DNA of 64,000 nucleotides from Thainema sp. (GCA_052168235.1 JBQLZK010000019.1:1-64000), one strand, 5' to 3'; numbered from the stretch's first letter, positions 16,468 to 32,762 are shown. A program made the numbers and translations. Notes: generated by a model from the letters alone, not told the origin.

Positions 16468-17049
16468 CTATTCAAAGCAAACTTGCTGGGAGCACCACCA
16501 TTCCAATAAAACGGCTCGACATTGCAGACAAATCAGAGCTTGCCTTAACTGCTGAATACCTGTTGCATTAACCGGATAGGCTTTGAAATCCTTGCCAGAT
16601 AATACGTTGGCAGCGCTAGCTAGATTCGCAACATAGCCATACAGTTTTTGATTTGAAAACGAACTATTGACGGGCCATCCCTCCGTATTTAACGGCCTGA
16701 GCTGAATAATTTCCGCCGCATCAACGGCCAACTCTCGCTTGAGAATTGCGATCGCAGTTTGCTCCCGTTGCTCCCGTGAAGATCCCTCTGGCACTCGACC
16801 ACCGGGAAAATCCAGACTCGCTTGACCCATACCAGGCCGATAACTGGGCGGCGGCAACACAATGCGATCGCACTGAATTGGTAGCACAATCAACGAATCG
16901 GCCTTTTCAATCCGCCAATATTCCAGCGTTTGCCCCTGATCATCCTGCAAATGCTCCCCAATCAGCGTCATCCAGCGAGAACGCAGCTCTAGGAAGCGAT
17001 CTTGAACAAGCCAGTCTTTACTCCTCACGCCTCTCGCCTTACTCCTCAC
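16468..17049 (-). CDS. Nudix-like hydrolase
   Basis: YRPG...LDFPGG and degenerate Nudix box ILKREL; N-terminus overlaps a heptamer tract, so start uncertain. Confidence 0.65.
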   Translation of the reverse strand: MRSKARGVRSKDWLVQDRFLELRSRWMTLIGEHLQDDQGQTLEYWRIEKADSLIVLPIQCDRIVLPPPSYRPGMGQASLDFPGGRVPEGSSREQREQTAIAILKRELAVDAAEIIQLRPLNTEGWPVNSSFSNQKLYGYVANLASAANVLSGKDFKAYPVNATGIQQLRQALICLQCRAVLLEWWCSQQVCFE

Positions 17050-17056
17050 TCTTTCC

Positions 17057-17683
17057 CTATTCAGCCAGATTTATCTGCCCCTGATACCCCGTGACAATAC
17101 GGCTGCCGTCTTTGAGGACATGGATTTCGATTTGGTCGCTGGCCCAGGTGAGGCGATCGTGTAGCGCGGGGTTCAAAACATGCACCCGCTGGTTGCTGGA
17201 GGATACCAAAGAGTCAGGGCTGTTAATCGCCAGCGATTCGACATAGGGGCCGTCAATGAGCAAATCGAGTTGGTCGAGTAAATCCTGTGCTCCGGCGGGT
17301 GCATTCTGCGATCGCAGTTGCTCAACCGTAAAGCCAGTAAACGACATGACGTTGAGTCCGGCAGCTTTGACCTGACGAGCCACTGCCGCGAGCGCTGTCG
17401 CTTGCCAGAAGGGTTCGCCACCGGAGAAGGTCACGCCTTCATTCTGGGGATGGCTGATAATTCGGTTGACCAGATCCTCGATTGAGATGAGCTGATTCGG
17501 TTCAAACGACCAGGACGCCTCATTGAAGCAGCCTGGGCACTCCCGTAAGCAGCCCTGCACCCAGACAACAGCACGGCAACCGGGGCCATTCACTTCCGAT
17601 TCATCAACGTAGCCCATGATATTGAGGTGGCCAGCCGGAATTTCAATCTGTTCGGTATAGGGATTAGCTTTGATGCGGGTCAT
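17057..17683 (-). CDS. NrdG-like radical SAM activase (single 4Fe-4S)
   Basis: VNGPG, WVQGCLRECPGCFN, GVTFSGGEPF, LIDGPY, SSNQR. Confidence 0.85.
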   Translation of the reverse strand: MTRIKANPYTEQIEIPAGHLNIMGYVDESEVNGPGCRAVVWVQGCLRECPGCFNEASWSFEPNQLISIEDLVNRIISHPQNEGVTFSGGEPFWQATALAAVARQVKAAGLNVMSFTGFTVEQLRSQNAPAGAQDLLDQLDLLIDGPYVESLAINSPDSLVSSSNQRVHVLNPALHDRLTWASDQIEIHVLKDGSRIVTGYQGQINLAE

Positions 17684-18669
17684 ACTGCAACTCCTTCGCT
17701 GGGTTGAGGTGCGCCAAAAATTCTATCGGTCAGTCTCACATACCAGGCAGCGGCCTGTACTTGAATGATATAAGCCATCGCAATAATCAGCGCAATTTCT
17801 GATCCCTGTTCACCCCCAAATACGGTGACGGCAATAGCCAAGGCAATCGATAAATTACGCATTACGGTGCCGTAAACAAGTGCGATCGCATCTCCTCGAT
17901 TAAACAAGGTCTTACCCACAATCGTACTTAAAATAAAATTACCGATATAAAGAACTGCAAGCGGGATCAGAAAAGACAACAATTCCAGCGGATTAGCCAC
18001 AATATCTTTCGCTTTGAGCGCCATCGCCACAAACACAATACCCAGTACGCCTAACGTAGAAAATGCCGGAAACTTTTGCTTCAAATTGCGATTATATTTA
18101 TCTGCACCGACAATCCGAATCAGAATTAGACGAGTGGCAACTCCCAATAGCATGGGTAAGAAAACGATAATGCCAATTTGTCGAAACGTGCTCGCCAAGG
18201 GGATTTCAATCACCGTTCCCATCAGCCACTTGGCATAAAATGGCGTGGCGATTGAGCCCAGAATGAGGCCAATTACTGTCATTTTAACAGCAGCACTTAG
18301 GTTACCTTTAGCGAATCCTGTCCAAGAAATGGTCATGCCGCTTGTCGGCAGAAGCGACGCCAGCAACAGGCCCAGCGCCACCAGAGGACGGTCGCTAAAG
18401 AACACTCGCCCCATGCCGTACGCAAAAAATGGCACAACCGCAAAATTGATGAACTGAGTCACAAGCTGTAGCTTGTAATCTTTACCTGACAAGACCTTCT
18501 GGACTTGCAGGTTAATCATCATCGGGTACACCATCAGAAAGGTGAGCGGTACAATCCAAGCTTTTAGCGGAGCCGGATTAGTCAGATATCCCACTACAAT
18601 TCCAGCCACCATCGACGATGGAACGGCCCAAACCAGATTCTTTTGAAAAATCTCCAGTAGCTTCCACAC
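17680..18669 (-). CDS. ACR3/bile-acid:sodium symporter (BART) family transporter
   Basis: About 10 TM helices, MVYPMM, PTSGMTISWTGFAKGN, RNLSIALAIA. Confidence 0.75.
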   Translation of the reverse strand: MWKLLEIFQKNLVWAVPSSMVAGIVVGYLTNPAPLKAWIVPLTFLMVYPMMINLQVQKVLSGKDYKLQLVTQFINFAVVPFFAYGMGRVFFSDRPLVALGLLLASLLPTSGMTISWTGFAKGNLSAAVKMTVIGLILGSIATPFYAKWLMGTVIEIPLASTFRQIGIIVFLPMLLGVATRLILIRIVGADKYNRNLKQKFPAFSTLGVLGIVFVAMALKAKDIVANPLELLSFLIPLAVLYIGNFILSTIVGKTLFNRGDAIALVYGTVMRNLSIALAIAVTVFGGEQGSEIALIIAMAYIIQVQAAAWYVRLTDRIFGAPQPSEGVAV

Positions 18670-18723
18670 AGTTCACAATTCTCCTGAGTTATTGTCTTGA
18701 GTTATCAATGTTGGAAATATTTA

Positions 18724-18749
18724 GTAGGGGCGAATGGTATTCGTCCCTA
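18724..18749. repeat. GTAG-type REP hairpin
   Basis: GTAGGGGCGAATGGTATTCGTCCCTA. Confidence 0.6.
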
Positions 18750-18763
18750 TCGATCCCTATGGC

Positions 18764-19108
18764 TTAATGGGAAACCTGTAAGGTGCGATCGAGTTCTGCG
18801 ATGAGCTGTGAAATGCGATCGCGGATTGCATTCACATTCGGTTTCGGTTGCTCTTCGAGCGCCATCGCCACCATTTGCAGCCCGATCTCCACAGCATCCG
18901 TAGAACTGAGCATGATCACGAACATATCGTCTGGATTGTTGGTCACCTCAAAATTGAGGTGAATAGAGGCCGGGTTCTGCTGCTCTTGACCCTCAACTGC
19001 ACCAACACGAGAAATCTTGCTGCCTTTAACAGTAGCGACATCATTGACCTGCCCCATTAGCGTAATGTCATGGGTGGTGAGGGAGTGGGTGACAAACTTA
19101 ACGGTCAT
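18764..19108 (-). CDS. Hypothetical protein (114 aa)
   Basis: Strong RBS GGAGG upstream of ATG; co-oriented within the operon; no family recognised. Confidence 0.7.
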   Translation of the reverse strand: MTVKFVTHSLTTHDITLMGQVNDVATVKGSKISRVGAVEGQEQQNPASIHLNFEVTNNPDDMFVIMLSSTDAVEIGLQMVAMALEEQPKPNVNAIRDRISQLIAELDRTLQVSH

Positions 19109-19202
19109 GGTTTTGCCTCCTATATACGGCAATAATTGATAGAGATTGACTACGGCAATGATTAGATAATGAATCTGGAGTTGATTAGGTTGGCCAGCAG
19201 GG

Positions 19203-20306
19203 TCAGGTATCGGCCACTAGCTCTGCCATCAGCGCTGCAACAGGCACAATCTCCGTCGCTCGCCCTGCATGGCTACCTGCAAAAACTAAACCCTGTTGCA
19301 CATCTCCCCGTGCGGCCCGATCAAGCGCCTGAAGAATACAGAATCCTTCCTTCGCCTCCCGATATCGACAAACCTGCAAGCAGTTGGCAATGCATCGTTT
19401 AACCAAGGGATCGGGTAAGTTCTGGGCAGCCTGCTCTGTGAACGAATTGCGCAGTGCTCGTCCCGGCAGCCCCACCGGACTAGACAAAATCACAACATCA
19501 TCAGCACTGGCCTGTAGATGAAATTCTTTGTAGCGGATGTTGGCATCGCACTCATGGGTCGTAATAAATCGAGTGCCAATCTGAACACCGTTAGCCCCCA
19601 ATGCCAGCATGCGGTTGATGTCCTGCCGATCCCAAATGCCGCCCGCCGCAATTACGGGTATATCAACGTTTAGATCATGCTGTAGGTAATTTACTAACTC
19701 TGGGATAACGATATCCAGATCCAGAGCTGGTTTACCTAAATCCTCAGCTTTTGCGCCTAAGTGACCGCCCGCAGCATTGGGTGTTTCCACAACAAATGCA
19801 TCCGGCAGACGACCATAGCGAGATTCCCAGCGACGACAGATGAGTTTGGCCGCTCGCAGGGTGGAAATGATTGGCACCAGGGCCACATCTGGATAGGATT
19901 GCGTGTACTCCGGCAAGTTCAACGGTAGCCCTGCGCCGCTGAGTATGATGTTTGCCCCGTGGGCCGCCGCCGTCCGCGCCAGCGTTTCATGATCGCGGGC
20001 CGCCATCATTGAGTTAATGCCAATAATGCCGTCTGGGCTTAGCTCTCGTGCTCGTTCTAGTTCATCAATGAGCGCTAGTCGATTTGCAGCAAAAAAGGTG
20101 TTCTTGGGCTGCTGCAGGTCGAAGTAAGGAGACCGAAACCCCAATCCAACAGCAGAGATAACACCAATGCCTCCCGCATTGGCAACGGCAGCGGCAAGAT
20201 TAGCACCCGAAATTCGAATGCCCATACCGCCTTGAATGATCGGATAGCGAGCTATATGTTGACCAATTTTGAGCGATGGTAGCGTAGTCATCATGCGTAT
20301 CGTCAT
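19203..20306 (-). CDS. Nitronate monooxygenase/FabK-like flavoprotein with 4Fe-4S Cys motif (FabX/UfaA-like), paralog 1
   Basis: PIIQGGMG, AGGHLG, IAAGGI, GVQIGTRF, CIANCLQVC...FCI. Confidence 0.85.
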   Translation of the reverse strand: MTIRMMTTLPSLKIGQHIARYPIIQGGMGIRISGANLAAAVANAGGIGVISAVGLGFRSPYFDLQQPKNTFFAANRLALIDELERARELSPDGIIGINSMMAARDHETLARTAAAHGANIILSGAGLPLNLPEYTQSYPDVALVPIISTLRAAKLICRRWESRYGRLPDAFVVETPNAAGGHLGAKAEDLGKPALDLDIVIPELVNYLQHDLNVDIPVIAAGGIWDRQDINRMLALGANGVQIGTRFITTHECDANIRYKEFHLQASADDVVILSSPVGLPGRALRNSFTEQAAQNLPDPLVKRCIANCLQVCRYREAKEGFCILQALDRAARGDVQQGLVFAGSHAGRATEIVPVAALMAELVADT

Positions 20307-20884
20307 CGTAAATTTGCTGTTCTTCTATCGCGCTGTCCCCTGCTCCAGCGACCCTGTTGTAATCCAGTCAGCATAGCTGTTCCAGCACATCGTTCGAATG
20401 CGGGTTGATGATTGTTCTGAGACACGTAGCTGAGTTGAGTAAAGGCCGCTCTTAGGTTAGGTTCCTGCACAAAGCTCAGGAAACGGTCATACATTTGGTA
20501 GTCTGCAATCTCGGCCTCGACTCCCATCTGACAGGCCGCTTGAAGCGTGTCGGGAATCTCTACATTGCCTGCAAAGGTATCCTCCGGCACAGGGATTCCG
20601 TATTGAGCAAAGAGTGACTGCCAAAGCTGCACATGCCGATTTTCTGCCTGAACGATGTTGCTGAAGGGTCGTACCGAGCCAAACTTGTCAATCACAGCAC
20701 TATAAAAAGCACGGGCATGATATTCATCATTAATGGCGTCGATCATGGCCGATTGCGTTCTAGCGTCAAGATTAGTGCCACCCGCACCATAGGCAGAAAG
20801 CGCCGCAACGATCATCACTGCCACTCCAGCTCCAACGGATGCTAGATAAGGCCAGTATTTTTTTTGATGTTTTTGCTGTCTCAT
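20303..20884 (-). CDS. Ferritin-like domain protein (DUF2202-like) with N-terminal signal/TM
   Basis: DEYHARAFY...AENRH...EAEI...NNH diiron-type pattern. Confidence 0.7.
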   Translation of the reverse strand: MRQQKHQKKYWPYLASVGAGVAVMIVAALSAYGAGGTNLDARTQSAMIDAINDEYHARAFYSAVIDKFGSVRPFSNIVQAENRHVQLWQSLFAQYGIPVPEDTFAGNVEIPDTLQAACQMGVEAEIADYQMYDRFLSFVQEPNLRAAFTQLSYVSQNNHQPAFERCAGTAMLTGLQQGRWSRGQRDRRTANLR

Positions 20885-20910
20885 TGTTCTTCACGCAAAT
20901 TAATTTATAT

Positions 20911-20926
20911 ATAACTAAATAGTGAT
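20911..20926. promoter_or_regulatory. Island operator ATAAC-N6-GTGAT
   Basis: ATAACTAAATAGTGAT upstream of the ferritin/NMO operon. Confidence 0.65.
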
Positions 20927-20992
20927 AATACAAGTACTTGTGTAGGATGAGCACTGCTTACCACTCCCAATTAGATCTTTTTGTCATTCGCA

Positions 20993-21154
20993 GTAGGGCG
21001 GATTTTGTATATCGGTTCTAATTGAAAGCCTAAATTGAGTCGCTAAACCCGCCCCTACTAGACATTTTTGGAGTGATGTAGATTGGGTTGAGTTATAACG
21101 AAAATCAACAACTTTATTAGTTGTTGGGTTTCGCGTTGCTCAACCCAACCTACA
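20993..21154. repeat. Two adjacent GTAG-type REP elements
   Basis: GTAGGGCGG...CCGCCCCTAC and GTAGATTGGGTTGAG...CTCAACCCAACCTAC; the second matches 47612-47687. Confidence 0.75.
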
Positions 21155-21171
21155 ACCCACAACATTGAGAA

Positions 21172-22485
21172 CTAAGCATTCGCGGCCATATCTTTCACAT
21201 TTTTTGGGTGAGTTGATGACGCCTGTACCAAATCCACGCCAAATAGAGCCTTCAGCCCCAGTCGCTCGAACCAGGGTACAGCAACCCCCATTCGCATTTT
21301 GGTCATAAAGTACTGCTCAAACATGGTTTTGCCCCAAACAACCCATTTTCCCTGCACTGCATAGGCATAGCGCCGCTGATGCGTGACGGGATCTGGCAGA
21401 ACTGGAGCAGCGACATAAAGAATGCCTGTGTCTCCAAACTCCGCAAAGCAAATGGCTTCTAGAGTGGGTACTTTTAATGGTTCCGAAATAGCACCGAGTT
21501 CAACTGCAATGTTATGTGCGACGGCCATCCCCATTGCTTCCGTCATTTGTCCACTCTTCGGTAGCCCGATCGGGACACGCGGCTTATCCGGTTGCGCTAA
21601 CTGCACGCTGACCCCCAGTGCATAAATTTCTGGAAACGTGGGATGTTGCTGAGTCGGCAAAATTGGGATAAAGCCTTTTTCATCACCCAATCCAGGCGCG
21701 TTTTGAACAAACCGCACGCCTCGGAATGCAGGCAAAATCATGGCGTACTTTTGAGGAATACTGCGGCCATCATCCAGTGTGATAGCGGTGTCAGTCACTT
21801 TAGTAATTGCTGCATCCTCAATAATTTCAACATTCCGCTTACGCAACAGCGCTTCCGTCAGTTTTTGGGCATTTTTTACGCCACTAACACCTAAATGTCC
21901 CGCATACGGCTCTGGCGTCACCAGGGTGAGCGAAACCTTATTTCGCAGTTTCTTACGGCGCAAAATCCAGTCCACCATCAGCACAAACTCATAGGCTGGG
22001 CCAAAACATCCCGCTCCAGGGGCGGCACCAACTACCAGTGGGCCTGGATCATCTAGAAACCTTAACCAAGCGTCGCGAGCTTCCACCGCATGATCGGCAG
22101 AACAGATGGAATGGGTGTAACCGCCGTGTGGACCTAATCCGGGCACCTGATCAACGGCGAGACTGGGGCCTGTGGCAATTACTGCATAGTCATAGTCAAT
22201 CGTCTGACCCGTTTGCACGGTGATCCGCTTTTCTTGGGGATTCAGCGCCGTCACCTTACTATTAACTAAATGCAAGCCATGCTGCTCGGCTAGCGGCTGC
22301 AAATCTAACTGAAAATGATCCAGCGGATCAAGATCGAGCGCAACTCGCGCTAAACCAGGAATAAAAGTAAATTTAGGGTGTTCCGAGATTAACGTAACGG
22401 TATGCTCAGCGGGCAGCAAATGCCGTAACTCATAAGCTGTCGGCAAGCCTCCTAATCCGGCTCCAATCACTACTACGTTTGCCAT
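21172..22485 (-). CDS. sqr: Sulfide:quinone oxidoreductase (type I-like)
   Basis: GAGLGG FAD motif; conserved cysteines in HSIC, GCFGPAYEF and AICFAEFG; PKSGQMTEAM; TPEPYAGHLG. Confidence 0.88.
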   Translation of the reverse strand: MANVVVIGAGLGGLPTAYELRHLLPAEHTVTLISEHPKFTFIPGLARVALDLDPLDHFQLDLQPLAEQHGLHLVNSKVTALNPQEKRITVQTGQTIDYDYAVIATGPSLAVDQVPGLGPHGGYTHSICSADHAVEARDAWLRFLDDPGPLVVGAAPGAGCFGPAYEFVLMVDWILRRKKLRNKVSLTLVTPEPYAGHLGVSGVKNAQKLTEALLRKRNVEIIEDAAITKVTDTAITLDDGRSIPQKYAMILPAFRGVRFVQNAPGLGDEKGFIPILPTQQHPTFPEIYALGVSVQLAQPDKPRVPIGLPKSGQMTEAMGMAVAHNIAVELGAISEPLKVPTLEAICFAEFGDTGILYVAAPVLPDPVTHQRRYAYAVQGKWVVWGKTMFEQYFMTKMRMGVAVPWFERLGLKALFGVDLVQASSTHPKNVKDMAANA

Positions 22486-22631
22486 TTCTTATAACCTCAA
22501 TCAATAAGTTCTTAAGTCACGTCTTGCCTAATCCGGCTGTGCAGACAAACCCCCTAGACACCCATCCTGAAACACTGAAAGCAGCTTATGTGAGTCATTA
22601 AAATTGCTAATTAATTGCGTATTTAAAGTAT

Positions 22632-22647
22632 ATAACCATATAGTGAT
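22632..22647. promoter_or_regulatory. Island operator upstream of sqr
   Basis: ATAACCATATAGTGAT; on the minus strand it lies 5 nt after a -35-like TTGAAC. Confidence 0.65.
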
Positions 22648-22901
22648 GAAAAGTTCAAGTTAATTTTTGATGAGGGGAAAGGGATAAGGTGCTGAGTGCT
22701 AGGTAGCAGGTGTTAGGTATGAGATGGCAAGTGGTAAAGGAGACCCAATACCTAATACCTGTATCTCCTAACGTTTTTACACACTACAACATGCTAAAGA
22801 AAACAAGGGGATACCGATACTCAGTGATATCGATTCCCCTATGGCGTGATGAAGTAAGAATGAACCTTGACGCTGTACTAGTTGGAATACAAGTTGAAAG
22901 A

Positions 22902-23999
22902 CTAGCTGTGAAGTGCGATCGCAGGTGCGACCATGCTGATAGGCGTAATATCCCCACTGGCTAATACTTCCGGAAAATTGTGAGCATTGGGCGCGTGCAT
23001 GACCTGAATGCCCAAGGTGGCTCGGTTGAGAATATCCGCGTTTGTTCGAATCACGGAGCCTTGGCTGTCCAAAATAGAGTGGTTAAAGTTGAAGCCATTC
23101 AGGTTGAAGGCCATCACGCCGACACCTAGAGCAGCGCACCAGATGCCAATCGTTGGCAACGCGACGAGCAGGAAGTGAACGCTGCGGCTGTTGCGGAACG
23201 CGAGTGAGGGAATCAGTAACCGCCCCAAATAGCCGACATGACCGGCAATTAGGTTATAGGTTGCTTCTTGCTGACCGAACCGATAACCCGCATTGGCCGA
23301 TTCCAAATCAGAGGTTTCTCGCACTAGGCTAGCGGTAACTAACGAGCCATGCATGGCGCTCAACAGCGCGCCACCAAAGACGCCTGCCACCCCAATCATG
23401 TGCAGTGGATGCATCAAAATATTGTGAGCAGCTTGGAAAGCAAACATGAAGTGGAACGTGCCCGCAATTCCGAGCGGTAAACCTTCTGAAAAGCTACCTT
23501 GACCAATGGGATAAACCAACAGAACCGCTGTGGCCGCTGCCACCGGAGCCGAAAATGCGATCGCAATCCAGGGACGCATCCCCAGCCGATAGCTCAACTC
23601 CCACTGACGACCCATGTAAGCGAAAATGCCAATCAAAAAGTGCAGCACAATTAGCTGATAGGGGCCGCCATTGTAGAGCCACTCAGCGATTGAGGACGCT
23701 GCCCAGATGGGATAAAAGTGCAAGCCAATTGCCGCAGAGGTGGGAATCACGGCAGCCGTGATTAGATTATTGCCGCTGATCAGCGACCCAAACACTGGCT
23801 CCCGAATCCCTTCCATATCCACAGGTGGAGCGGCAATGAAGGCCAACGCAAAAACAGTTGTGGCTACTAGTAACGTTGGAATCATGAGGACACCAAACCA
23901 ACCGATGTATAACCGATTGTCAGTACTGGTAATCCAGCGACAAAAATCAGCCCATAGATCAAAATCAATGGCCGGTCGTTTTTTGAGTGCAATAGCCAT
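22902..23999 (-). CDS. psbA: Photosystem II D1, rogue (group 2) form lacking Mn4CaO5 ligands
   Basis: D1 fold with D61E, D170E, E189A, E333A, R334P, D342V; Y161, H190, H198, H215, H272, H332, H337 retained; altered QB loop. Confidence 0.9.
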
Positions 24000-24288
24000 A
24001 TATAGCCTCCTTAAATGAGGAGAAAATCGACGGTTTATAAGATGAAGAGAAAATGATGTCTCTTAACAAACCGACGATCGATTGCGAGTTGAAGCTTGGA
24101 TAGTTAAGTTGATGAATGAAACAACTCAATCAGCAAGCTGTTCAATCAACTGACCTGTCAACTAGACGAGTCCGACAAATTTTGCCGTTAGAAAAATATA
24201 GAAAAACGTCGCCGTACGCCGGGCCAACAGCCTAGAAAACGTTAGCGGTCAGTCCTGAGTGAATTATAGAACCGCTTTTTAAAGCTAA

Positions 24289-24304
24289 ATGACTATTTAA
24301 TTAT
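24289..24304. promoter_or_regulatory. Island operator variant in the psbA/DUF2892 divergent region
   Basis: ATGACTATTTAATTAT (reverse complement ATAATTAAATAGTCAT). Confidence 0.45.
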
Positions 24305-24576
24305 TTTTAGAGATTTTGTCTTGACAAATAGCAATGATCAACAACAGCAAGATAGAATTTTTTTATAAAAGCGACTGAAATTTGCTTCGGCAGTCGTTGG
24401 CGCTACACAACAGCAGTCAGCAGCAGTTTTATCCTAAAAATTCATTCTGGATAGGCGCTTAAGCCGATATCCAACACTGGTTACGCTTTTAAATGGCGAT
24501 TAAATAATAAAACCTTTTTAATACCCATATAGCAACAGTTGCGACGATCGCGACTCGACTGAGATCGCAAATCTGC

Positions 24577-24606
24577 TTTACAACTCTATAACCAACAAGC
24601 TATATT
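24577..24606 (+). promoter_or_regulatory. Sigma70-like promoter overlapped by the island operator
   Basis: TTTACA-18nt-TATATT, with ATAACCAACAAGCTAT at 24588-24603. Confidence 0.6.
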
Positions 24607-24705: not shown

Positions 24706-24918
24706 ATGAAAACAAATGTAGGCTCAATTGATCGGCTCATTCGTCTCTTATTAGCATCTGTACTGCTGTATTTTGGTCTGTTAATTCACGGCGGTACAGC
24801 ATTGGGAATTGGCCTTACTCTTGCAGGCAGCATTTCATTTATGACGGGTCTAATTGGCTTTTGTGGTCTTTACAAGCTTTTGGGGATTTGCACCAAGCAG
24901 CCCAATGAACAGCTCTAA
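24706..24918 (+). CDS. DUF2892 (YgaP-like) membrane protein
   Basis: NVGSIDRLIR...TGLIGFCGLYKLLGICT; RBS GGAG upstream. Confidence 0.85.
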   Translation: MKTNVGSIDRLIRLLLASVLLYFGLLIHGGTALGIGLTLAGSISFMTGLIGFCGLYKLLGICTKQPNEQL

Positions 24919-24951: not shown

Positions 24952-25380
24952 ATGACTTATCACTTCAGCAAAGTGGTTGATGCGTCCTTCGAAGATGCGA
25001 TCGCACAAGTAACCGAATCCCTTAAACAAGACGGTTTTGGCATTTTAACGGAAATCGACGTCCAGGCTGCCTTTCAGAAAAAGCTAGGAGCCTCATTTCG
25101 ACAGTACAAGATTCTAGGAGCCTGTCATCCTCAGATTGCCTATCAAATCCTGCAAACCGATGATAAAGCGGGAGTCATGTATCCCTGTAACGTGGTGGTA
25201 CAGGAGCATGAAGACGGCAGAGTGGAAGTTTCGGCGGTTGATCCGTTGATCATGTTTTTAATGGTGCATAATCCCCGCGTTAAAGAAATCGCGCTGGATG
25301 CTAGTGAAAAGATGCAGCGCGTCATCGAGCGTCTCCCTGCCGCCAACCGACTGGCCCAGCAAGCCGAATACGCCATTTGA
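24952..25380 (+). CDS. DUF302 domain protein
   Basis: GFGILTEIDV, YKILGACHP, YPCNVVV, VSAVDP. Confidence 0.88.
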   Translation: MTYHFSKVVDASFEDAIAQVTESLKQDGFGILTEIDVQAAFQKKLGASFRQYKILGACHPQIAYQILQTDDKAGVMYPCNVVVQEHEDGRVEVSAVDPLIMFLMVHNPRVKEIALDASEKMQRVIERLPAANRLAQQAEYAI

Positions 25381-25396
25381 GTGGAGGTGAGTAACG

Positions 25397-25945
25397 ATGA
25401 GCAATAGTATGGACAACAGTTTGCCATTAGACAGCCCGTCCCTATCTCGGCGGCAACTGCTCAACTTCTTGACCGGGGCAACCGTTGCAGCCACCGCTGG
25501 CTCTGCTCTCTACGCAATGGGCAAGGTGTTTGTACCACCTGCCGAACCGACGGGAGCTGGAGGCGCAATTATCGCCAAAGATATTCTGGGTAAACCGATT
25601 CCGGCAAGTCAAATTTTGGCCGAACCACCCGGCACCCGCGCCTTAGTCGCAGGGCTAGCGGGTGAGCCGACATATCTTACGGTTCAAGCAGACAGCACCC
25701 TCGATCGCATGGGGCTAGTCGATAACTGTACCCATCTCGGCTGTACCTTCCCCTGGAACGAAACCGATCAGCAGTTTCAGTGCCCCTGCCACGGTTCTCG
25801 CTATGCGCCGGATGGCTCAGTTATTCGAGGGCCAGCTCCCCTACCTTTGAAGCTGGTTCAGGTGGCCGTTGTTGATAACACCATCTTGATTTCGCCGTGG
25901 ACTAAGACTGATCCTCGAACTGGCGAACAACCGTGGTGGGTTTAG
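25397..25945 (+). CDS. petC: Cytochrome b6f Rieske iron-sulfur subunit (alternative, PetC2-like)
   Basis: Tat SRRQLL, CTHLGC and CPCHGS, C-terminal DPRTGEQPWW; not adjacent to petA. Confidence 0.92.
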   Translation: MSNSMDNSLPLDSPSLSRRQLLNFLTGATVAATAGSALYAMGKVFVPPAEPTGAGGAIIAKDILGKPIPASQILAEPPGTRALVAGLAGEPTYLTVQADSTLDRMGLVDNCTHLGCTFPWNETDQQFQCPCHGSRYAPDGSVIRGPAPLPLKLVQVAVVDNTILISPWTKTDPRTGEQPWWV

Positions 25946-26175: not shown

Positions 26176-26221
26176 AACTCGCTTCACGTTCACTCAATTC
26201 CTCCACACCATAGGAGTCTGT

Positions 26222-26620
26222 ATGAAAATTGCTGTATCCAGTCAAGACCAAACTCATGTAACGGCTCACTTGAGGCACTGCCAAAAGTTTTGGATCTACG
26301 ATGTAGACGCTGACACGATTCAAAACAAACAGCTGCTACAACTGGCGAAAAGCCAAAGCTTCCACGAAAGTTCTCCCAAAACATCTCACCCCTTAGACAC
26401 GGTTCAGGTACTCATCAGCGGCAGTATGGGTCGAGGCTTAGCCCGTCGGCTGGACGCTAAAGGAATTCAGCCACTGGTGACATCTGAAACAGATCCAGAC
26501 GCTGCGATCGCAGCTTATCTGACCGGATCTTTGGCTGTCGGTTCTCCAGAAGAACATAATCATGCTCACGATCACGCAGAAGGCGATCACGCAGGCAAAT
26601 GTGGCTGTCATCACGAGTAA
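26222..26620 (+). CDS. NifB/NifX-family cofactor-binding protein with His/Cys-rich tail
   Basis: MKIAVSS, HLRHC, ISGSMGRGL; RBS AGGAG; tail HNHAHDHAEGDHAGKCGCHHE. Confidence 0.8.
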   Translation: MKIAVSSQDQTHVTAHLRHCQKFWIYDVDADTIQNKQLLQLAKSQSFHESSPKTSHPLDTVQVLISGSMGRGLARRLDAKGIQPLVTSETDPDAAIAAYLTGSLAVGSPEEHNHAHDHAEGDHAGKCGCHHE

Positions 26621-26864
26621 GCCATATCCGGTTTGTAATCTGTTGATTGATCAACCATTTGTAGCGGTTGACAAGCGTATTACGTGTAGCCGCATTACAT
26701 ACAAAAACTGTTACGTACGAAAACAGTTATGTGGAGCGCTGCGTGCCTTATATAACCGTATTTGACCAACGCGCATAGCGCTATAGTTCGTGGTGAAATG
26801 GGTATTTTGCCGCCGCGTTGCGGCGCGAAATACCCTCTTCGTGTTTTAGTAAAAAGGAAAGCAA

Positions 26865-27326
26865 ATGTGGGGTAGCGCAATCACTGCCTATTTACATTAC
26901 TTAGGTTTCATGTTGGCGTTTGGAGCGTTAGTCATTGAAAATCAAACGCTGAAGAAAGATCTTAATCTTGCAGACGCTTGGCGCGTACTAACGGCAGACG
27001 CAATTTATGGATTGTCAGCGACGGTCATCTTAATTACGGGAATTTTGAGAGTCCTTTATTTTGGTAAAGGAACGGAATATTATCTCAACAGTCCGGTTTT
27101 TTATATCAAAGTTGGTCTGTTTATTATCGTTAGTTTGCTATCGATTTATCCTACCTTTTCGTTTCTGTCTTGGGTCAAGGATTTACGTAACGGCAAATGT
27201 CCCAGCCTTGAGCTGCCACAAGTGCAGCGGCTGAATTGGCTGATTCGAGGAGAACTGATCGGGCTGGCGCTCATTCCTCTATTTGCAGCGCTTTTGGCCA
27301 GAGGCATTCAGCTATGGAACGTGTAA
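26865..27326 (+). CDS. DUF2214 family membrane protein
   Basis: AYLHYL, D-x-x-YG, TGILR, KG-x-x-YY, SIYPT, LLARG. Confidence 0.8.
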   Translation: MWGSAITAYLHYLGFMLAFGALVIENQTLKKDLNLADAWRVLTADAIYGLSATVILITGILRVLYFGKGTEYYLNSPVFYIKVGLFIIVSLLSIYPTFSFLSWVKDLRNGKCPSLELPQVQRLNWLIRGELIGLALIPLFAALLARGIQLWNV

Positions 27327-27435
27327 AGTCTTTCAATCACGAATAGGATTCAGACCAGGATGTTTTGCTGTGCCGATGCAGTTTGTACAGCGAAACATCC
27401 TCTTTTTTAGTGCTCTCTTTAGAAACTCATAAATC

Positions 27436-28674
27436 ATGGTTGACTACGATGTCCTGATAGTCGGCGGCGGCATGGTTGGCATGTCCTTAGCCGCTGCTTT
27501 GAGAACCACATCACTGCGGGTCGGCATCATTGAACGCACCGACCCACAGTTATCACAAAACGACAGCCGAGCAAGTGCGATCGCACTTGGCTCAGCCTAT
27601 ATCCTGGATCAGATTGGAGCTTGGCAAACGATGCAAACCCTGGGAGTCTCTCCCATCCATCAAGTTGTCATATCGGATGAAGGGTTTCCCCTAACGACCA
27701 CCTTGCGCCGAGAAGATCTAGACGTTCCGGCACTGGGATACGTTGTGGAAAATCAGGTGACAACAACAGCATTAACTGAGGTTGTTATGGCTGCTCCCCA
27801 GGTGCAGTGGTTACGTCCTGCCAAGGTAACAGAAATCACCGCTCAGCCCAGTCATCTGCAAGTCACCTTGGAGCATCAGGATAAGGTGCAGCAGGTTTCT
27901 GCTTATCTGGTGGTTGGTGCAGATGGTCGCCAATCCTGGGTGCGGCATTGGGCTAATATTCCCGTTTCCAAGCGGAACTACCCGCAAGCGCTCATTGTCT
28001 GCACCATCACCACTGAACTGCCGCATTACCAAACGGGATATGAGCGGTTTCATCGTAGCGGGCCGTTTGCCATTCTGCCGATGATTGCGCCTAATGGCTC
28101 ACCCAACATCCATCGCAGTTGTGTCGTTTGGACAGCCCAAGCCCAGCAGCGCGATCGCTTACTGGCTCTAGATGATGCAGCGTTTATTGAAGCAATGGCT
28201 CCTCGAATCAGTCCTGATTTAGGACAGGTGCTATCGGTTTCTGCACGGGCTTGCTACAGCCCTCGTTATCAGCACAGCCGGAACTACCAGGCTCACCGAC
28301 TGGCACTCGTCGGAGATGCCGCCCATGCCACTCATCCCGTGGGTGGGCAGGGGCTAAATATGGGCTTACGGGATGTCGCTGTCTTAGCCTCTTTGCTAAC
28401 TCGGGCACAGACTCTCGGCCTTGATCCAGGACACGCCGATCTCCTCCAGCAGTATCAGCGCCAGCGTCAGCCAGATAACGCAACAGTTCTATTTGGCACC
28501 GATCTAGCTAATCGCTTGTTTTCTAATAGCTGGCTACCACTACAGTTGATGCGTCGGCTGGGCCTGTTTGGGATCGAACATGTTTCACCACTCAAGCGCG
28601 AACTCGTTCGATACGCAATGGGTCTAGCCACCAATCAACCCCAATTTAGCTCAAACCCTACTGTGAGGAAGTAA
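27436..28674 (+). CDS. UbiH/UbiF/VisC-family FAD-dependent hydroxylase
   Basis: GGGMVG, GADGRQSWVR, GPFAILP, GDAAHATHPVGGQGLNMGLRD. Confidence 0.9.
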   Translation: MVDYDVLIVGGGMVGMSLAAALRTTSLRVGIIERTDPQLSQNDSRASAIALGSAYILDQIGAWQTMQTLGVSPIHQVVISDEGFPLTTTLRREDLDVPALGYVVENQVTTTALTEVVMAAPQVQWLRPAKVTEITAQPSHLQVTLEHQDKVQQVSAYLVVGADGRQSWVRHWANIPVSKRNYPQALIVCTITTELPHYQTGYERFHRSGPFAILPMIAPNGSPNIHRSCVVWTAQAQQRDRLLALDDAAFIEAMAPRISPDLGQVLSVSARACYSPRYQHSRNYQAHRLALVGDAAHATHPVGGQGLNMGLRDVAVLASLLTRAQTLGLDPGHADLLQQYQRQRQPDNATVLFGTDLANRLFSNSWLPLQLMRRLGLFGIEHVSPLKRELVRYAMGLATNQPQFSSNPTVRK

Positions 28675-28710
28675 AACGTGAGACGTGAGGCATAAAGACT
28701 GTAAAAACTC

Positions 28711-28808
28711 ATTACCCAACACCTGACACCAATACTTAACACCCAAAAACTAGCACCTGGCATCCAACACTCAACACCTAGCACCTAACACCCAAAACCC
28801 AACTCCCC
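28711..28808. repeat. STRR-like degenerate heptamer tract
   Basis: Repeated (C/T)AACAC(C/T)-like 7-mers; similar tracts at 17017-17052, 22682-22765 and 31006-31029. Confidence 0.6.
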
Positions 28809-28814
28809 ATTACT

Positions 28815-28855
28815 AAAAAAACTGAGGAAGCGACTCTCCAAAACGCTTCCTCAGT
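28815..28855 (-). terminator. Rho-independent terminator of psbA (D1')
   Basis: ACTGAGGAAGCG...CGCTTCCTCAGT stem preceded by an A-tract (U-tract on the minus strand). Confidence 0.7.
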
Positions 28856-28908
28856 GTCAGGTTTCAGTTGAAATACACCTTAGTTAGGACCCGTTAGTTT
28901 CACTCGGC

Positions 28909-29991
28909 TTAACCTGCGATCGCAGGTGCAACCAGTGCAATTGGCTGAATATCACTAGCTGCCAGATCCAGCGGGAAGTTGTGCGCGTTACGCTCGTGGA
29001 TCACCTCAATCCCCATGTTGGCTCGATTGAGAACGTCGGCCCAAGTTGCAATCGGGCGGCCCTGAGCATCCAGCACAGAATCATTGAAGTTAAAGCCATT
29101 CAGGTTGAATGACATAGTGCTGATGCCGAGCGAGGCAAACCAAATACCAATTACCGGCCAAGCCGCGAGGAAGAAGTGCAGCGATCGCGAGTTGTTGAAC
29201 GAGGCATATTGGAAGATCAGCCGACCAAAGTAGCCGTGAGCGGCCACAATGTTATAGGTTTCTTCTTCTTGACCGAACCGATAGCCGTAGTTGAGCGACT
29301 CTGTTTCAGTCGTTTCCCGCACCAAGCTGGAGGTAACCAGTGAACCGTGCATAGCGCTGAAGAGTGCGCCACCGAAGACCCCAGCCACACCTAGCATATG
29401 GAACGGATGCATCAGCACATTATGCTCAGCCGTGAACACAATCATGAAGTTGAAGGTGCCGGAAATGCCGAGCATCAGGCCATCAGAGAAGCTACCTTGA
29501 CCAATCGGATAGATCAGTAAAACAGCCGTTGCGGCAGAAGCCGGAGCAGAGAATGCAACCGGAATCCAAGGCCGCATACCCAGACGATAGCTGAGTTCCC
29601 ACTGACGCCCCATGTAAGCATAGACGGCAATCAAAAAGTGGAAAATGATCATCTGGTAGGGGCCACCGTTGTAGAGCCACTCATCCAGCGTCGCCGCTTC
29701 CCAGATGGGATAAAAATGGAGTCCAATGGCGTTGGACGTGGGAACGACGGTCGCTGTAATGATGTTGTTGCCATACAGCAGTGAACCGCTGACGGGTTCG
29801 CGGATGCCGTCAATATCGACGGGAGGTGCTGCAATAAATGCCAAGACAAAGACAATGAGAGCCGTGAGAGCAGTCGGGATAAGTAGAACACCAAACCAAC
29901 CAACGTAGAGCCGATTTTCTGTGCTGGTAACCCAACTACAGAACCGCTCCCACACATTAGCGCGATCGCGCTGTTGTAGAGATGTAGTCAT
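28909..29991 (-). CDS. psbA: Photosystem II D1' (microaerobic, group 3)
   Basis: All Mn ligands present (D170, E189, H332, E333, D342, A344); diagnostic G80A, F158L, T286A, plus P173M. Confidence 0.92.
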
Positions 29992-30060
29992 AGTTCAATG
30001 AATGAAAATATAGGAAACGTATGAAGTGAAATCGGCAGGAAAAGCCTGTCCTCATATTTA

Positions 30061-30087
30061 ATAACTAAATAGTTATTTAATTGTCAA
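30061..30087 (-). promoter_or_regulatory. D1' promoter: TTGACA followed by a perfect island operator
   Basis: Minus strand TTGACA-attaa-ATAACTATTTAGTTAT. Confidence 0.7.
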
Positions 30088-30284
30088 GCCCATTGGTGGA
30101 ATTTTTTGTTTTTGCATCCGGTTACGGATGATTTGCAATAACGAACAGATTTGAGGAGCTACTTAGGCCGATCTACTTTGTTTTCCTATTTCAGCAGCTC
30201 CGCATTTTACCCGTTTTACGTCCTGTAACAAAATATAAATACAAATATTCGACAAAGCAGTCATATAGCTATATAAAGATATTA

Positions 30285-30300
30285 ATCGCTTCATGGTTAT
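30285..30300. promoter_or_regulatory. Island operator upstream of the Tll0287-like gene
   Basis: ATCGCTTCATGGTTAT; weaker copy GCAGTCATATAGCTAT at 30257-30272. Confidence 0.5.
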
Positions 30301-30381
30301 AGATTAGCGATCTGGGTTCGCCCTGCGTTGGCTGATTGCTCTAGATCGCTCGATATGTTCACCCCTTCATCGACTGAACTC

Positions 30382-31002
30382 ATGCTAAAACTCATCTATC
30401 GGCTCGTTTTTACTATCGGATGTGCGATCGCACTTGTGGTTTGGCATCCGACTTCGGCCTGGGCACAGACCAACCCCGCAGAACTGGCTAAAGCCGTGCA
30501 AGAAATTGAACACCTCGATAGTTTGCGTTCCGGCTTGGCTTCCACACTAGAGGGGCAGACTGAAGAACCAACCCTCCAAACCATGCAAGAAGTCTGCAAG
30601 CCGGTCGGCATGAAAGCAATGCAGCTGGGGCAGGAAAACGGTTGGCAGGTAAAGCAAATCGCCAACAAGTATCGCAATCCCGCCCATGCACCTGACAATC
30701 CCAATGCCGAAGCAGCGCTAGCGCAATTTGAGCAGCATCCAGACCTAGTTGGCTTCTGGGAACGAGAAACGATCAATGGGCAAGCAGGAACCCGCTACTT
30801 CCGCCGCATCAACGTCGAAGCCAGCTGTCTAGCCTGCCACGGCAGCGAAAACAGCCGTCCCCAATTCGTCAAAGACAACTACCCACAAGACTTAGCCTAC
30901 GACTTCCAAGTTGGCGACCTGCGCGGCATGTATTCCGTCTTCATGCCAGACGTGCAAGCCAGCGTACAGCAAGCATTACGAGTTGCACTTGACCCTTCTT
31001 AG
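30382..31002 (+). CDS. Tll0287-like (DUF3365) c-type haem protein
   Basis: Signal peptide, EVCKPVG Cys ligand, KYRNP, SCLACHG CxxCH, GDLRGMYSV. Confidence 0.88.
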   Translation: MLKLIYRLVFTIGCAIALVVWHPTSAWAQTNPAELAKAVQEIEHLDSLRSGLASTLEGQTEEPTLQTMQEVCKPVGMKAMQLGQENGWQVKQIANKYRNPAHAPDNPNAEAALAQFEQHPDLVGFWERETINGQAGTRYFRRINVEASCLACHGSENSRPQFVKDNYPQDLAYDFQVGDLRGMYSVFMPDVQASVQQALRVALDPS

Positions 31003-31051
31003 TAGCTCCTCACTCCTCACTCCTCACTCAATTCCCCATAAGGCAACTTCC

Positions 31052-31582
31052 ATGTGGCATCAGCTCCAGCGCACAGTTTCGTTATTGGTAGTTACGGCGT
31101 TAGTCGGTTTAACTCTGCTGTGCTGCATCTTCTCAACACCGCCAGCCTTGGCTGCCATTCGTCAGCTAGAAGAAGCACCCGGACAGGTTGTCTACCAGTC
31201 GCGGCAAACGCTCAAGGATCAACACAACAATAGTTGGCAAGCGATCGCATTTAAGCGTATCCAGCCCGATGCCAATCCCCAGGTTTATCTGCGACTGGTT
31301 GGCTTCCCTGGCACAGCCGACATTGACCGCTCTCAGCCCCTGGTTTTAACCAGCTCAATGGGACAAACGTTGGAAGCCGCCGATGCCTCCAGCCGAATTT
31401 TTACTGATGCAAGTGCGCCGGAGCCAAACGTCGGTCAGTACAACTTACAGCCAATTCTGGCGGAGCTGCGGGCCGAACTGCCCTGGCGCTTACAGATTCC
31501 AGCGGCTGAAGGAGTCAAGGTGACGCTACCTGTTCCATCAAGCATTATTCAAGAATGGCAGACCGTTGCTCAATATGATTAG
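31052..31582 (+). CDS. DUF3122 family exported protein
   Basis: Signal peptide; QSRQTLKD, SWQAIAFKR, LRLVGFPG, NVGQY. Confidence 0.75.
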   Translation: MWHQLQRTVSLLVVTALVGLTLLCCIFSTPPALAAIRQLEEAPGQVVYQSRQTLKDQHNNSWQAIAFKRIQPDANPQVYLRLVGFPGTADIDRSQPLVLTSSMGQTLEAADASSRIFTDASAPEPNVGQYNLQPILAELRAELPWRLQIPAAEGVKVTLPVPSSIIQEWQTVAQYD

Positions 31583-31655
31583 AAGTCTGGGATTAAAGGT
31601 CTGCAATTAGAAGTCTGGGGCATGTAATCGTCGCACGGTGATGTATTATCGAAAA

Positions 31656-31671
31656 ATTGCTATTTAGTTAT
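31656..31671. promoter_or_regulatory. Island operator upstream of NMO paralog 2
   Basis: ATTGCTATTTAGTTAT, ending 14 nt before the ATG. Confidence 0.6.
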
Positions 31672-31685
31672 CAATCGAACAGATC

Positions 31686-32762
31686 ATGTTGCGATCGCAC
31701 TCTCCTCTCAAAATTGGTCAGCACGTTGCTCGCTATCCCATTGTGCAGGGTGCAATGGCGGTGCGGGTTTCTGGTGCTAATTTGGCAGGAGCCGTTGCCA
31801 ATGCCGGAGGCGTTGGGGTTATCTCAACGCTGGGTTTAGGGCTAACTTCGCCCCACTTTAATCAGTCCCGCCGGGGCAACTTTTTCGAGGCTAATCAGCT
31901 CGCGCTAATCGACGAACTGCAAAAAGCGCGCACCATTAGTCCCGACGGCATCATTGGAGTTAACATCCTAGTTGCAACCCGCAACTACGCCACCCTAGCG
32001 GAAACTGCCGCTGCCAACGGAGCCAATCTGATCATCACCGCCGCAGGTCTGCCGCTCCAGTTACCTGCTTATACTGCCAACTACCCAGAGGTAGCGCTGA
32101 TGCCAATGGTCTGCGGTCTGCCTGCTGTGCAAACCCTTTGCCAAACCTGGCAGCAGCAGTATGGTCGGTTGCCCGATGCGTTTATTGTCGAAAACTCCAA
32201 AGCAGTCGGTGGCCATGTAGGCAGCACCTGCGACAATTACAGCAGCCAAATTGAAACGCTGCTGCCCAGCATTCAGCATTATCTCCACCATCACCTGCGC
32301 GTCGATATTCCGCTGATTGCTACAGGCGGCATCTGGAATCAAGCCGATGTGGAGCGGATGCTAGCGCTCGGAGCCAGTGGCGTACAGGTGGGTACTCGTT
32401 TCATTACCACTGAAGAGTGCGATGCGGATGATCGCTACAAAGAATTTCATCTCCAATCCACTCCGGCGGATGTCGTCATGGTGCCAAGCCCAGTGGGTAA
32501 GCCAGCGCGGGTTCTCCGCAATGCGTTTGCCGAGAAAGCAATGGCGGCATCTGTCGGCATTAAGCGCCGCTGTGTTGCCAACTGTCTCGAAAGCTGTCTC
32601 TGCCGCGATCAGCGCCAAACCTACTGCATGTTACAAGCACTCGCCAATGCCGCCAAGGGCGATATTGAAAATGGACTGCTCTTTTCGGGAGCGAATGTGG
32701 GACGAGCCGAACAAATTGTGCCAGTTGCTGAAGTGATGGCAGATTTAGTTAACGTTAGCTGA
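31686..32762 (+). CDS. Nitronate monooxygenase/FabK-like flavoprotein (FabX/UfaA-like), paralog 2
   Basis: PIVQGAM, VGGHVG, GVQVGTRF, CVANCLESC...YCM; clearly paralogous to 19203-20306. Confidence 0.85.
   Translation: MLRSHSPLKIGQHVARYPIVQGAMAVRVSGANLAGAVANAGGVGVISTLGLGLTSPHFNQSRRGNFFEANQLALIDELQKARTISPDGIIGVNILVATRNYATLAETAAANGANLIITAAGLPLQLPAYTANYPEVALMPMVCGLPAVQTLCQTWQQQYGRLPDAFIVENSKAVGGHVGSTCDNYSSQIETLLPSIQHYLHHHLRVDIPLIATGGIWNQADVERMLALGASGVQVGTRFITTEECDADDRYKEFHLQSTPADVVMVPSPVGKPARVLRNAFAEKAMAASVGIKRRCVANCLESCLCRDQRQTYCMLQALANAAKGDIENGLLFSGANVGRAEQIVPVAEVMADLVNVS

Follow-up and report, generated by a model that had tools for sequence, protein, structure and literature searches.

A sulfide and low-oxygen gene cluster of Thainema sp. 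with two alternative D1 genes and a recurrent operator-like palindrome

Gene content of the locus and its recurrence beside sqr

The stretch of DNA analysed here, called the window throughout, comprises 64,000 nt from Thainema sp. (GCA_052168235.1 JBQLZK010000019.1:1-64000) and contains a cluster of about 16.3 kb (16468-32762) in which the gene for a sulfide:quinone oxidoreductase (SQR, encoded by sqr) lies together with two alternative psbA genes for the photosystem II (PSII) protein D1. A preliminary description had read this region as a sulfide/low-oxygen photosynthesis island carrying a complete switch module. Family scans and translations located every gene that it named between these coordinates, along with four cluster members missing from its list, which encode a DUF3122, a DUF2214, a NUDIX-like and a 114-aa hypothetical protein.

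The sqr gene lies at 21172..22485 on the minus strand, and no other type I copy was found in the genome. Its product aligned to the Acidithiobacillus SQR (E 6e-90) with C128, C160 and C346 coinciding with the type I cysteines (C128/C160/C356 type), as in solved type I enzymes, and by these three cysteines and a Rossmann flavin adenine dinucleotide motif the protein is a type I SQR, with a putative sulfide:plastoquinone activity in support of anoxygenic photosynthesis. The psbA gene next to it (22902..23999, minus strand) carries the substitutions D61E, D170E, E189A, S264A, E333A, R334P and D342V, and has thus lost the Mn ligands E189, E333 and D342, while Y161, H190, H198, H215 and H252 are retained. 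The second psbA gene (28909..29991, minus strand) carries G80A, F158L and T286A, as well as F147, L172 and M173, and keeps the full set of Mn ligands. Judged by the published definitions of the D1 groups, which include A80/L158/A286 for D1' (PMC4408414), the former is a Group 2 rogue D1 and the latter a Group 3 D1', whose low-oxygen induction is putative here. In a tree that held no Group 1 sequence the rogue D1 clade stood apart from Groups 3 and 4 (100/100 split); a Group 1 identity is excluded only because H252 is kept and the protein is 69% identical to standard D1.

The remaining genes are arranged around these three. On the plus strand, divergent from the rogue psbA, lie genes for a DUF2892/YgaP-like membrane protein (24706..24918, 24706 being its likely start and 24655 that of the longest open reading frame (ORF)), a SuoC-like DUF302 protein identified by family scan (24952..25380) and an alternative Rieske protein, PetC2 (25397..25945). 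PetC2 passes NF045928 (289 bits against a cut-off of 250), has both Rieske cluster motifs intact and is a second copy outside petCA, 50% identical to the petCA copy. The standard D1 genes, petCA and another ubiH are all on other contigs of the same genome, with the housekeeping petC beside petA on C3. The plus strand continues with a NifX/NifB-family (PF02579) protein with a His-rich tail (26222..26620, the likely start following AGGAG), the DUF2214 membrane protein (26865..27326) and a second UbiH-family hydroxylase (27436..28674), which is 36% identical to the copy on C35 and has orthologues of 55-57% identity in three other low-oxygen clusters. Past D1', again on the plus strand, are the genes for a Tll0287-like haem c protein (30355..31002), the DUF3122 protein (31052..31582, likely start 31052) and FabX-like protein 2 (31686..32762). 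To the left of sqr a six-gene minus-strand unit encodes a ferritin-like/DUF2202-like protein with a hydrophobic N-terminus (20303..20884), the FabX-like flavin mononucleotide/[4Fe-4S] protein 1 (19203..20306), the 114-aa protein (18764..19108), an Acr3/SBF-fold transporter (17680..18669), an NrdG-like radical SAM protein (17057..17683) and the 193-aa NUDIX-like protein (16468..17049); a stem-loop of 20 pairs with T-rich tails on both strands (16405..16448) is the probable end of this leftward operon. Residue and family checks agree with the gene grouping first described and with the identities of the type I SQR, both D1 proteins, PetC2, the Tll0287-like protein and the two FabX-like proteins. 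The names ferritin-like, NifX-like, NrdG-like and Acr3-like stand as resemblances only, being under curated cut-offs; the NifX-like protein passes PF02579 and not the nifX equivalog.

Gene content around sqr was compared across 92 loci of up to 21 kb each, 89 of them with an sqr match, the sqr-less locus of the sister species being removed from the counts; within the 89, one locus is a duplicate (L028 = L057), three genomes contribute two loci each, two matches are distant and not of type I, some carry non-cyanobacterial labels, and many of the contigs are short. The commonest neighbours of sqr were DUF3122 and Tll0287 (38/89 each) and petC (34/89), followed by the Acr3-like gene (22/89), DUF302 (19/89) and DUF2892 (15/89). 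At intermediate frequency we found D1' and the ferritin-like gene (12/89 each), the 114-aa gene (11/89), the NrdG-like gene (10/89) and FabX-like genes (8/89), and more rarely DUF2214 (6/89), rogue D1 (5/89, one truncated) and the NUDIX-like gene (5/89). The NifX-like and UbiH-like genes occurred in one locus each, the UbiH match being only 28% identical; closer copies of both are in loci L353 and L379, and of UbiH also in L373. An ArsR gene was present in 44 of the 89 loci and in none of the Thainema cluster's own positions. The synteny foreseen by the preliminary description holds for gene content, which recurs around sqr, and fails for gene order, which is not conserved.

The same association appeared when 60 related genomes, 23 with type I sqr and 37 without, were compared by hand tallies in which kin are not independent. 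Full-length members of the Acr3-like clade occurred in 15/23 sqr-positive and 1/37 sqr-negative genomes (two more of the latter had fragments), Tll0287 in 18/23 and 3/37, and FabX-like genes in 12/23 and 3/37. The grouping of the cluster thus exceeds chance. Related clusters occur in named strains, for example Leptolyngbya sp. PCC 6406, Anabaena sp. 4-3, Synechocystis PCC 6803 (plasmid pSYSM) and PCC 7002 (pAQ7), and sqr is plasmid-borne in other cyanobacteria. Both D1 types lie near sqr in loci L035, L030 and L379. In L030 (5763-6880) D1' is frameshifted while the rogue D1 is intact, and the same genome has a second D1' beside hemN. Two further features of the sqr neighbourhoods were noted: a conserved protein of about 137 aa that has no Pfam match (L111:5563-5976 and 12 other sqr loci) and no tblastn match in the Thainema genome, and genes that by eye resemble heterodisulfide reductase near sqr in 11 loci (L061, L063, L067, L091, L092, L096, L098, L100, L101, L103 and L112).

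A shared palindromic site and the rogue D1 lineages that carry it

A de novo search of sqr upstream regions, made after masking a CGATCG palindrome that we take to be the HIP1 repeat, returned a 22-bp palindrome with the consensus TATATaAC-TATATA-GTtATATA in 39 of 51 regions. Scored with a matrix trained only on the sqr upstream regions of other genomes, the cluster's own site being excluded, operator-like sites precede nearly every transcription unit of the cluster. They lie 23 bp before the six-gene leftward unit (20908..20929, score 22.7), 143 bp before sqr (22629..22650, 20.2), about 100 bp before the likely DUF2892 start (24585..24606, 14.2), 66 bp before D1' (30058..30079, 23.1) and 11 bp before FabX-like 2 (31653..31674, 15.5). 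Two overlapping sites (24278..24307; 10.9, and 15.1 at 24286) are found before the rogue psbA, where they overlap a minus-strand sigma70-like match, and two weak ones (30262..30303; 10.4 at 30262, and 8.9) before tll0287; sigma70-like and terminator-like counts were at chance level. Co-regulation of a module would lead one to expect such a palindrome ahead of sqr, the petC2 unit and each psbA gene, and to that extent the module membership first proposed is supported, less so for the NifX-like and UbiH-like genes, which are rare near sqr.

Six of the 20 sites above 14 in the whole genome lie in the cluster's 16.3 kb. Column-permuted palindromic matrices, 40 in number, placed at most one site there (mean 0.025) with a genome mean of 7.3, from which it follows that some of the 14 sites outside the cluster are due to chance. 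The strongest site in the genome (23.6) precedes a PDO-rhodanese-TauE operon (C14:87317-89735), and others precede feoAB (17.1), acsF2/ho2 (16.9 and 13.2), a B12 radical SAM gene (16.3) and a SuoR-type arsR (15.3), gene names that were read from translations and confirmed by families only for acsF and arsR. The SuoR-type gene, with its own upstream site, is near a contig end (C32:376-925) and far from sqr, and the acsF2/ho2 sites belong to a low-oxygen cluster (C69:21156-28554) that comprises a desaturase, a BchE-like radical SAM protein, hemN and ho2 divergent from acsF2. With a candidate regulator and the sulfur disposal genes placed elsewhere, and petA on C3, the module at the locus is not the complete one originally envisaged.

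Among psbA genes the site is restricted to alternative D1s. All 14 D1' promoters from sqr loci, the Thainema cluster and the sister species scored 10.3-28.7, and no standard D1 promoter exceeded 5.6 (row sets of 22 and 23, partly the same genes, and further standard rows). Similarly, in six other loci a site scoring 18-26 immediately precedes rogue psbA; the L035 site falls in the gap that separates rogue psbA from petC, which offers no other gene start for it to serve. Across 13 kb of Synechocystis pSYSM a single site exceeds 9 (21.5), and it falls within the 117-bp suoS/suoC promoter, which, according to a review, SuoR binds and represses (PMC4307280). Two other arrangements were seen in the survey: in locus L429 (7590-13129) D1' and rogue D1 form a tandem pair, accompanied by nrdG, a distant SQR-like gene (25%) and two operator-like sites, and A80 D1 genes without the palindrome lie beside Tll0287, mostly also with petC and in some cases PDO and rhodanese, in L354, L356, L360-L363 and L365.

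Rogue D1 proteins were then compared as a set of 55 loci drawn from 251 genomes, 61 relatives and one metagenome scan. Their tree contains a clade A of seven rows, including the Thainema cluster copy, with a Shimodaira-Hasegawa-like approximate likelihood ratio (SH-aLRT) support of 93, and a clade B of 11 rows with support of 93-96, and every sqr-linked rogue D1 copy falls in one or the other. A type I sqr was within the retrieved locus for 10 of the 18 rogue D1s of these clades (an eleventh is 10.4 kb away) and for 0/37 others; at least one cluster gene was nearby for 15/18 against 0/37, and an operator-like site of at least 12 was present for 7/18 against 0/37. On a thinned tree of 44 rows the sqr-link label changed four times. 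Nitrogenase genes (nifH or nifD) were present in all nine tested genomes carrying a clade A or B rogue D1, and the Thainema genome itself has nifH.

The reader of the site is, on this sequence comparison, probably an ArsR-family protein, and SuoR-type, D1'-linked and housekeeping ArsR proteins have nearly identical recognition helices. ChlR was considered as the reader and rejected, its motif being a different one, TTMCC-N3/4-GGWAA (PMC13421787); the Thainema genome has a 4-Cys ChlR anyway. No exact match to that motif was found in 16000-34000, which is a weak test, exact matching having found it at only 1/21 acsF2 promoters. The palindrome, at a score of at least 12, marks the acsF2 promoter in 11 of 24 genomes, and a ChlR orthologue was present in 4 of these 11 against 10 of the 13 others (hand tally, p 0.095); put the other way, the palindrome is at acsF2 in 7/10 genomes without a ChlR orthologue and 4/14 with one. 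This inverse relation is a tendency only, and it bears on the remark in a review that some other mechanism must operate in strains that lack ChlR (PMC4500134). One soil metatranscriptome contained 7% of the sequence words, in contigs of mixed relatives dominated by psbA, and was set aside as evidence on expression.

Accessory genes and flanking DNA

The transporter encoded at 17680..18669 resembles Acr3 only distantly, scoring 88.5 bits against a TIGR00832 cut-off of 282.8. Acr3 exports arsenite by means of a cysteine in transmembrane helix 4 (TM4) and a glutamate in TM9. By alignment the Thainema protein has Thr and Val at these two positions, contains no cysteine at all and reads PTSGM where six distant homologues have PCT. 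The 30 further members of its clade all have this Cys-less motif and likewise lack the TM9 glutamate, so that arsenite export by the Acr3 mechanism is unlikely. The gene is a companion of sqr, lying within 10 kb of it in 12 of 15 sqr-positive carriers. It was also considered as a SuoT and rejected, as the pSYSM transporter is of the ChrA family.

FabX-like protein 1 matched the structure 7E1Q with E 6e-85, and both FabX-like (NMO) proteins keep the catalytic His of FabX (His182) and its four [4Fe-4S] cysteines. The equivalent of Arg164, which binds the acyl carrier protein, is present in protein 1 and replaced by Gln in protein 2, and a decanoyl-ACP dehydrogenase/isomerase activity of either is putative. 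Homologues of protein 2 elsewhere adjoin acsF2, D1' or a desaturase-hemN cluster, neighbourhoods that would fit a low-oxygen lipid role. In Helicobacter pylori, FabX needs O2 and works best at microaerophilic levels (PMC8626469). The Tll0287 homologue matched 5B82 (E 3e-57) and PF11845, with CxxCH and one conserved distal Cys shared over the part aligned to 5B82. The other assignments are weaker. The NrdG-like protein (CxxxCxxC at 45) reached 108 bits against a cut-off of 126, and no PF13597 or PF01228 match to an NrdD or glycyl-radical partner was found in the Thainema genome; the ferritin-like protein matched DUF2202 below cut-off (E 0.004); the NUDIX-like protein, labelled by eye, had no Pfam match at E<=1. 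The 114-aa protein had 22 matches including itself and a model with a mean predicted local distance difference test score of 84.6, with no Pfam family, no Atlas match at 0.9, a best Foldseek E of 0.46 and a best VIA Z of 5.5 (PC4/PUR-like), which is not significant.

Beyond the range first described, a pentapeptide-repeat gene (32865..33602, plus strand) passes NF047416, adjoins FabX-like 2 in three other genomes and is a probable extra member of the cluster. Between petC2 and the NifX-like gene (26069-26185) is a repeat, about 110 bp long and folding into a hairpin (-46 kcal/mol), that recurs over at least 70 bases at 108 places in the genome and in dozens in the sister species, resembling a miniature inverted-repeat transposable element or a repetitive extragenic palindrome; its position indicates that the listed NifX-like ORF start at 26111 is too early. 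Another dispersed repeat of about 95 bp, at about 39790-39890 and 42365-42465 of the window, also has many copies in the sister genome. To the left of the cluster are a resistance-nodulation-division efflux pair and a PadR regulator (10167-15626), which the sister species keeps on another contig, and to the right, after hemJ, is a YhcG/DUF1016 PD-(D/E)XK nuclease gene (35982-37097) with no match listed in the search of sister-species DNA.

A proposed regulon and its alternatives

SQR feeds electrons through plastoquinone and the b6f complex to photosystem I (PSI), D1' works at low oxygen, and rogue D1 is without the ligands of water oxidation. Set against this background, the predicted sites and gene contents make it on balance probable that a sulfide/low-oxygen regulon has its physical core in this cluster. 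An ArsR-family repressor, either the product of the SuoR-type gene of C32 or a paralogue whose recognition helix is the same, would hold the promoters shut and release them under sulfide-derived sulfane sulfur or low oxygen, so that the units would be induced together. SQR would then pass sulfide electrons to plastoquinone, b6f, for which PetC2 would be available, and PSI, while the PDO-rhodanese-TauE proteins, under the same site, would deal with sulfane sulfur. D1' would maintain water oxidation at low oxygen. The rogue D1 would give a PSII core unable to split water, silencing PSII in the light, an arrangement that would suit nitrogen fixation driven by light and fed by sulfide in a genome bearing nifH. 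We would guess further that the Cys-less Acr3-like protein may move a sulfur oxyanion and not arsenite, that Tll0287 may be an exported haem partner or sensor of sulfide oxidation, and that FabX-like 1 may make unsaturated fatty acids at low oxygen.

Several points weigh against this proposal. Co-induction, the binding of a regulator at the locus and CO2 fixation driven by sulfide are putative. The site assigned to the rogue psbA is imperfect (15.1) and 286 bp away, in an AT-rich divergent region; 11 of the 18 clade A and B genes are without a site of their own, four of these lying behind petC in the same orientation; of 16 metagenomic A80 D1 genes only 2 carry the palindrome, the other 14 doing without; and among the sites listed none above 12.5 is near nifH. 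The sister species has only the housekeeping ArsR, yet keeps the palindrome before D1', FabX-like 2 and acsF2/ho2. SuoR is therefore not the sole reader, as the sites persist in a species without sqr and the SuoR-type gene, and the signal may be oxygen rather than sulfide. The rogue D1 comparison has its own limits: the metagenomic copies were found with the cluster's own protein as query, the limits of clades A and B were set after inspection of the tree, the 37 other loci include 9 shorter than 5.2 kb and 12 from one close group, and a joint A and B clade is neither shown nor rejected (p 0.51 in the approximately unbiased test). Published rogue D1s, moreover, are mostly linked to darkness or nitrogenase (PMC4408414).

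It could be that the locus serves sulfide detoxification and low-oxygen acclimation only, with SQR removing sulfide, oxygenic photosynthesis continuing with D1' and no growth on sulfide, which we hold unlikely, if the most serious of the alternatives. SQR does detoxify sulfide in PCC 7002 (PMC7042703), the strongest site in the genome precedes the PDO-rhodanese-TauE operon, and the site also marks acsF2/ho2, a plain low-oxygen unit, in nearly half of the genomes scored. However, the Thainema SQR belongs to type I, which in Geitlerinema is tied to anoxygenic photosynthesis (PMC5061849), PCC 7002 depends on sqr for growth on sulfide in the presence of 3-(3,4-dichlorophenyl)-1,1-dimethylurea (PMC12466478), and a D1 dead for water splitting contributes nothing to detoxification. 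Another reading is that the rogue D1 serves night-time or microoxic nitrogen fixation on a schedule of its own, outside the shared site, and stands near sqr only because low-oxygen genes gather. The presence of nitrogenase genes in all tested clade A and B genomes, the nifH of the Thainema genome, the sister species' want of both nifH and rogue D1, the published expression in dark and nitrogenase phases and the weak, distant site at the Thainema rogue psbA all speak for such independence. Against it stand the strong sites immediately ahead of rogue psbA in six other loci, including the petC-psbA gap of L035, and the lack of any such site or nearby sqr among the other 37 rogue D1s, and we consider it rather improbable. 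Far less probable still is that the locus, on the model of Synechocystis suoRSCT, serves arsenic resistance or the use of arsenite, the Acr3-like protein being the pump for arsenite. The suoRSCT system links SQR to arsenite transport, ArsA ATPase genes occur in two related clusters (L030 and L076), and Tan 2024 reads such clusters as arsenic-related; yet the transporter is Cys-less like all of its clade, where the distant homologues have PCT, it scores far under the Acr3 cut-off, and the pSYSM transporter lies outside the Acr3-like clade.

A separate question, compatible with any of these explanations, is origin. In the sister species nrdG, D1', DUF3122 and FabX-like 2 are adjacent, without the 11-kb block or tll0287, a layout that divides the Thainema cluster into a D1' core and a sulfide block. 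The sister genome (99% complete, 190 contigs) gave no match for sqr, rogue D1, the Acr3-like gene, Tll0287, a SuoR-type gene or nifH. This layout, and the plasmid location of sqr in other cyanobacteria, would be expected of a mobile island recently inserted between nrdG and D1', in keeping with the word island in the preliminary description. However, no tRNA gene was found in the window and no transposase or integrase among 25 ORFs scanned, and the GC content at third codon positions resembles that of the flanks; the cluster thus shows no sign of mobility in integrase, tRNA site or composition, direct repeats at its ends not being part of the search. Moreover, the SuoR-type gene and further genes that have the site are found on several other contigs, and DUF3122, a companion of sqr, is retained in the sister species. 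Recent acquisition is accordingly quite improbable, and these features favour loss in the sister lineage over recent gain.

The linkage of sqr with psbA, with petC2 and with Tll0287 was already published, the preliminary description itself noting partial linkages in sulfide-tolerant mat cyanobacteria, and the Thainema locus is a real, unusually full example of the known sqr-psbA-petC2 neighbourhood. Grim and Dick 2016 (PMC5061849) described type I sqr a few genes from Group 2 or Group 3 psbA in 15 genomes and suggested linked regulation with arsR nearby. Thainema differs in having both D1 types beside one sqr, although the neighbourhood figures of that paper and of Tan 2024 may show both, and in the shared site and rogue D1 subclades, which are not in the parts of the account at hand. 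Placement of sqr beside petC2 and arsenic genes is also reported (PMC11304991). On pSYSM, suoS-suoR/suoC-suoT likewise joins a type I SQR (58% identical), DUF302, Tll0287 and DUF3122 to the same palindrome in a divergent promoter, but the regulator there is inside the cluster, SuoT is of the ChrA family and no psbA or petC lies in the 13 kb, whereas Thainema has its SuoR-type gene on C32 and an Acr3-fold transporter. Synechocystis slr1181-1185 and Acaryochloris AM1_0448-0451 (psbA1-rhodanese-petC2) resemble the cluster in pairing an alternative D1 with petC2 under microoxic induction, the Acaryochloris psbA, assumed unable to evolve O2, being accompanied by DUF2892, petC and rhodanese (PMC5295598); the relevant passages of that source name one alternative D1 and no sqr, and the Thainema cluster has no internal rhodanese. 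In Thermosynechococcus a His/Cys haem c protein, Tll0287, is found with PsbA2, which the Thainema D1' resembles (F147, M173), although the Thainema copy is divergent from D1' and shares its promoter region with operator-like sites; a role of Tll0287 in H2S oxidation or redox sensing has been proposed (10.1101/2023.02.13.528314). The ChlR regulon (acsF2-ho2-hemN, psbA1, desF) overlaps in its targets acsF2/ho2 and D1', but ChlR is an activator with another motif, not reported to control sqr. H. pylori FabX shares its catalytic residues with both Thainema proteins and Arg164 with the first only, and the word cyanobacteria is absent from the FabX structure paper. Within the literature searched we found no paper on the palindromic operator or on a Cys-less sqr-linked Acr3; the SuoR footprint and rogue D1 subgroups may already be in print. 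What appears new is a predicted operator shared by sulfide and low-oxygen genes and a rogue D1 subset tied to it.

A wider joint reading is possible, which we offer only tentatively. The ArsR-read operator would define a cyanobacterial regulon joining SQR, sulfur disposal, low-oxygen chlorophyll synthesis and both alternative D1s, in which dedicated rogue D1 lineages were captured as a light-time off-switch for O2 during sulfide-fed nitrogen fixation (sulfide-linked nitrogen fixation is described in PMC12694226). It may also offer a route for induction of acsF2 and D1' without ChlR, make the Cys-less Acr3 clade a sulfur-oxyanion transporter and place Tll0287 in the second sulfide oxidase postulated by Hamilton et al. 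2018 (PMC5776472).

According to one account (PMC8651085), little is known about how the change between oxygenic and sulfide-driven photosynthesis is regulated. With a site defined, a repressor proposed and a rogue D1 subset placed under the site, the regulation of this switch and the role of rogue D1 become open to direct experiment, and the cluster yields candidates for biochemistry in the Cys-less Acr3-fold transporter and the cyanobacterial FabX-like enzymes, whose functions are putative. Taken together, the data extend a known gene linkage and offer a way in which cells would switch photosynthesis when sulfide appears.

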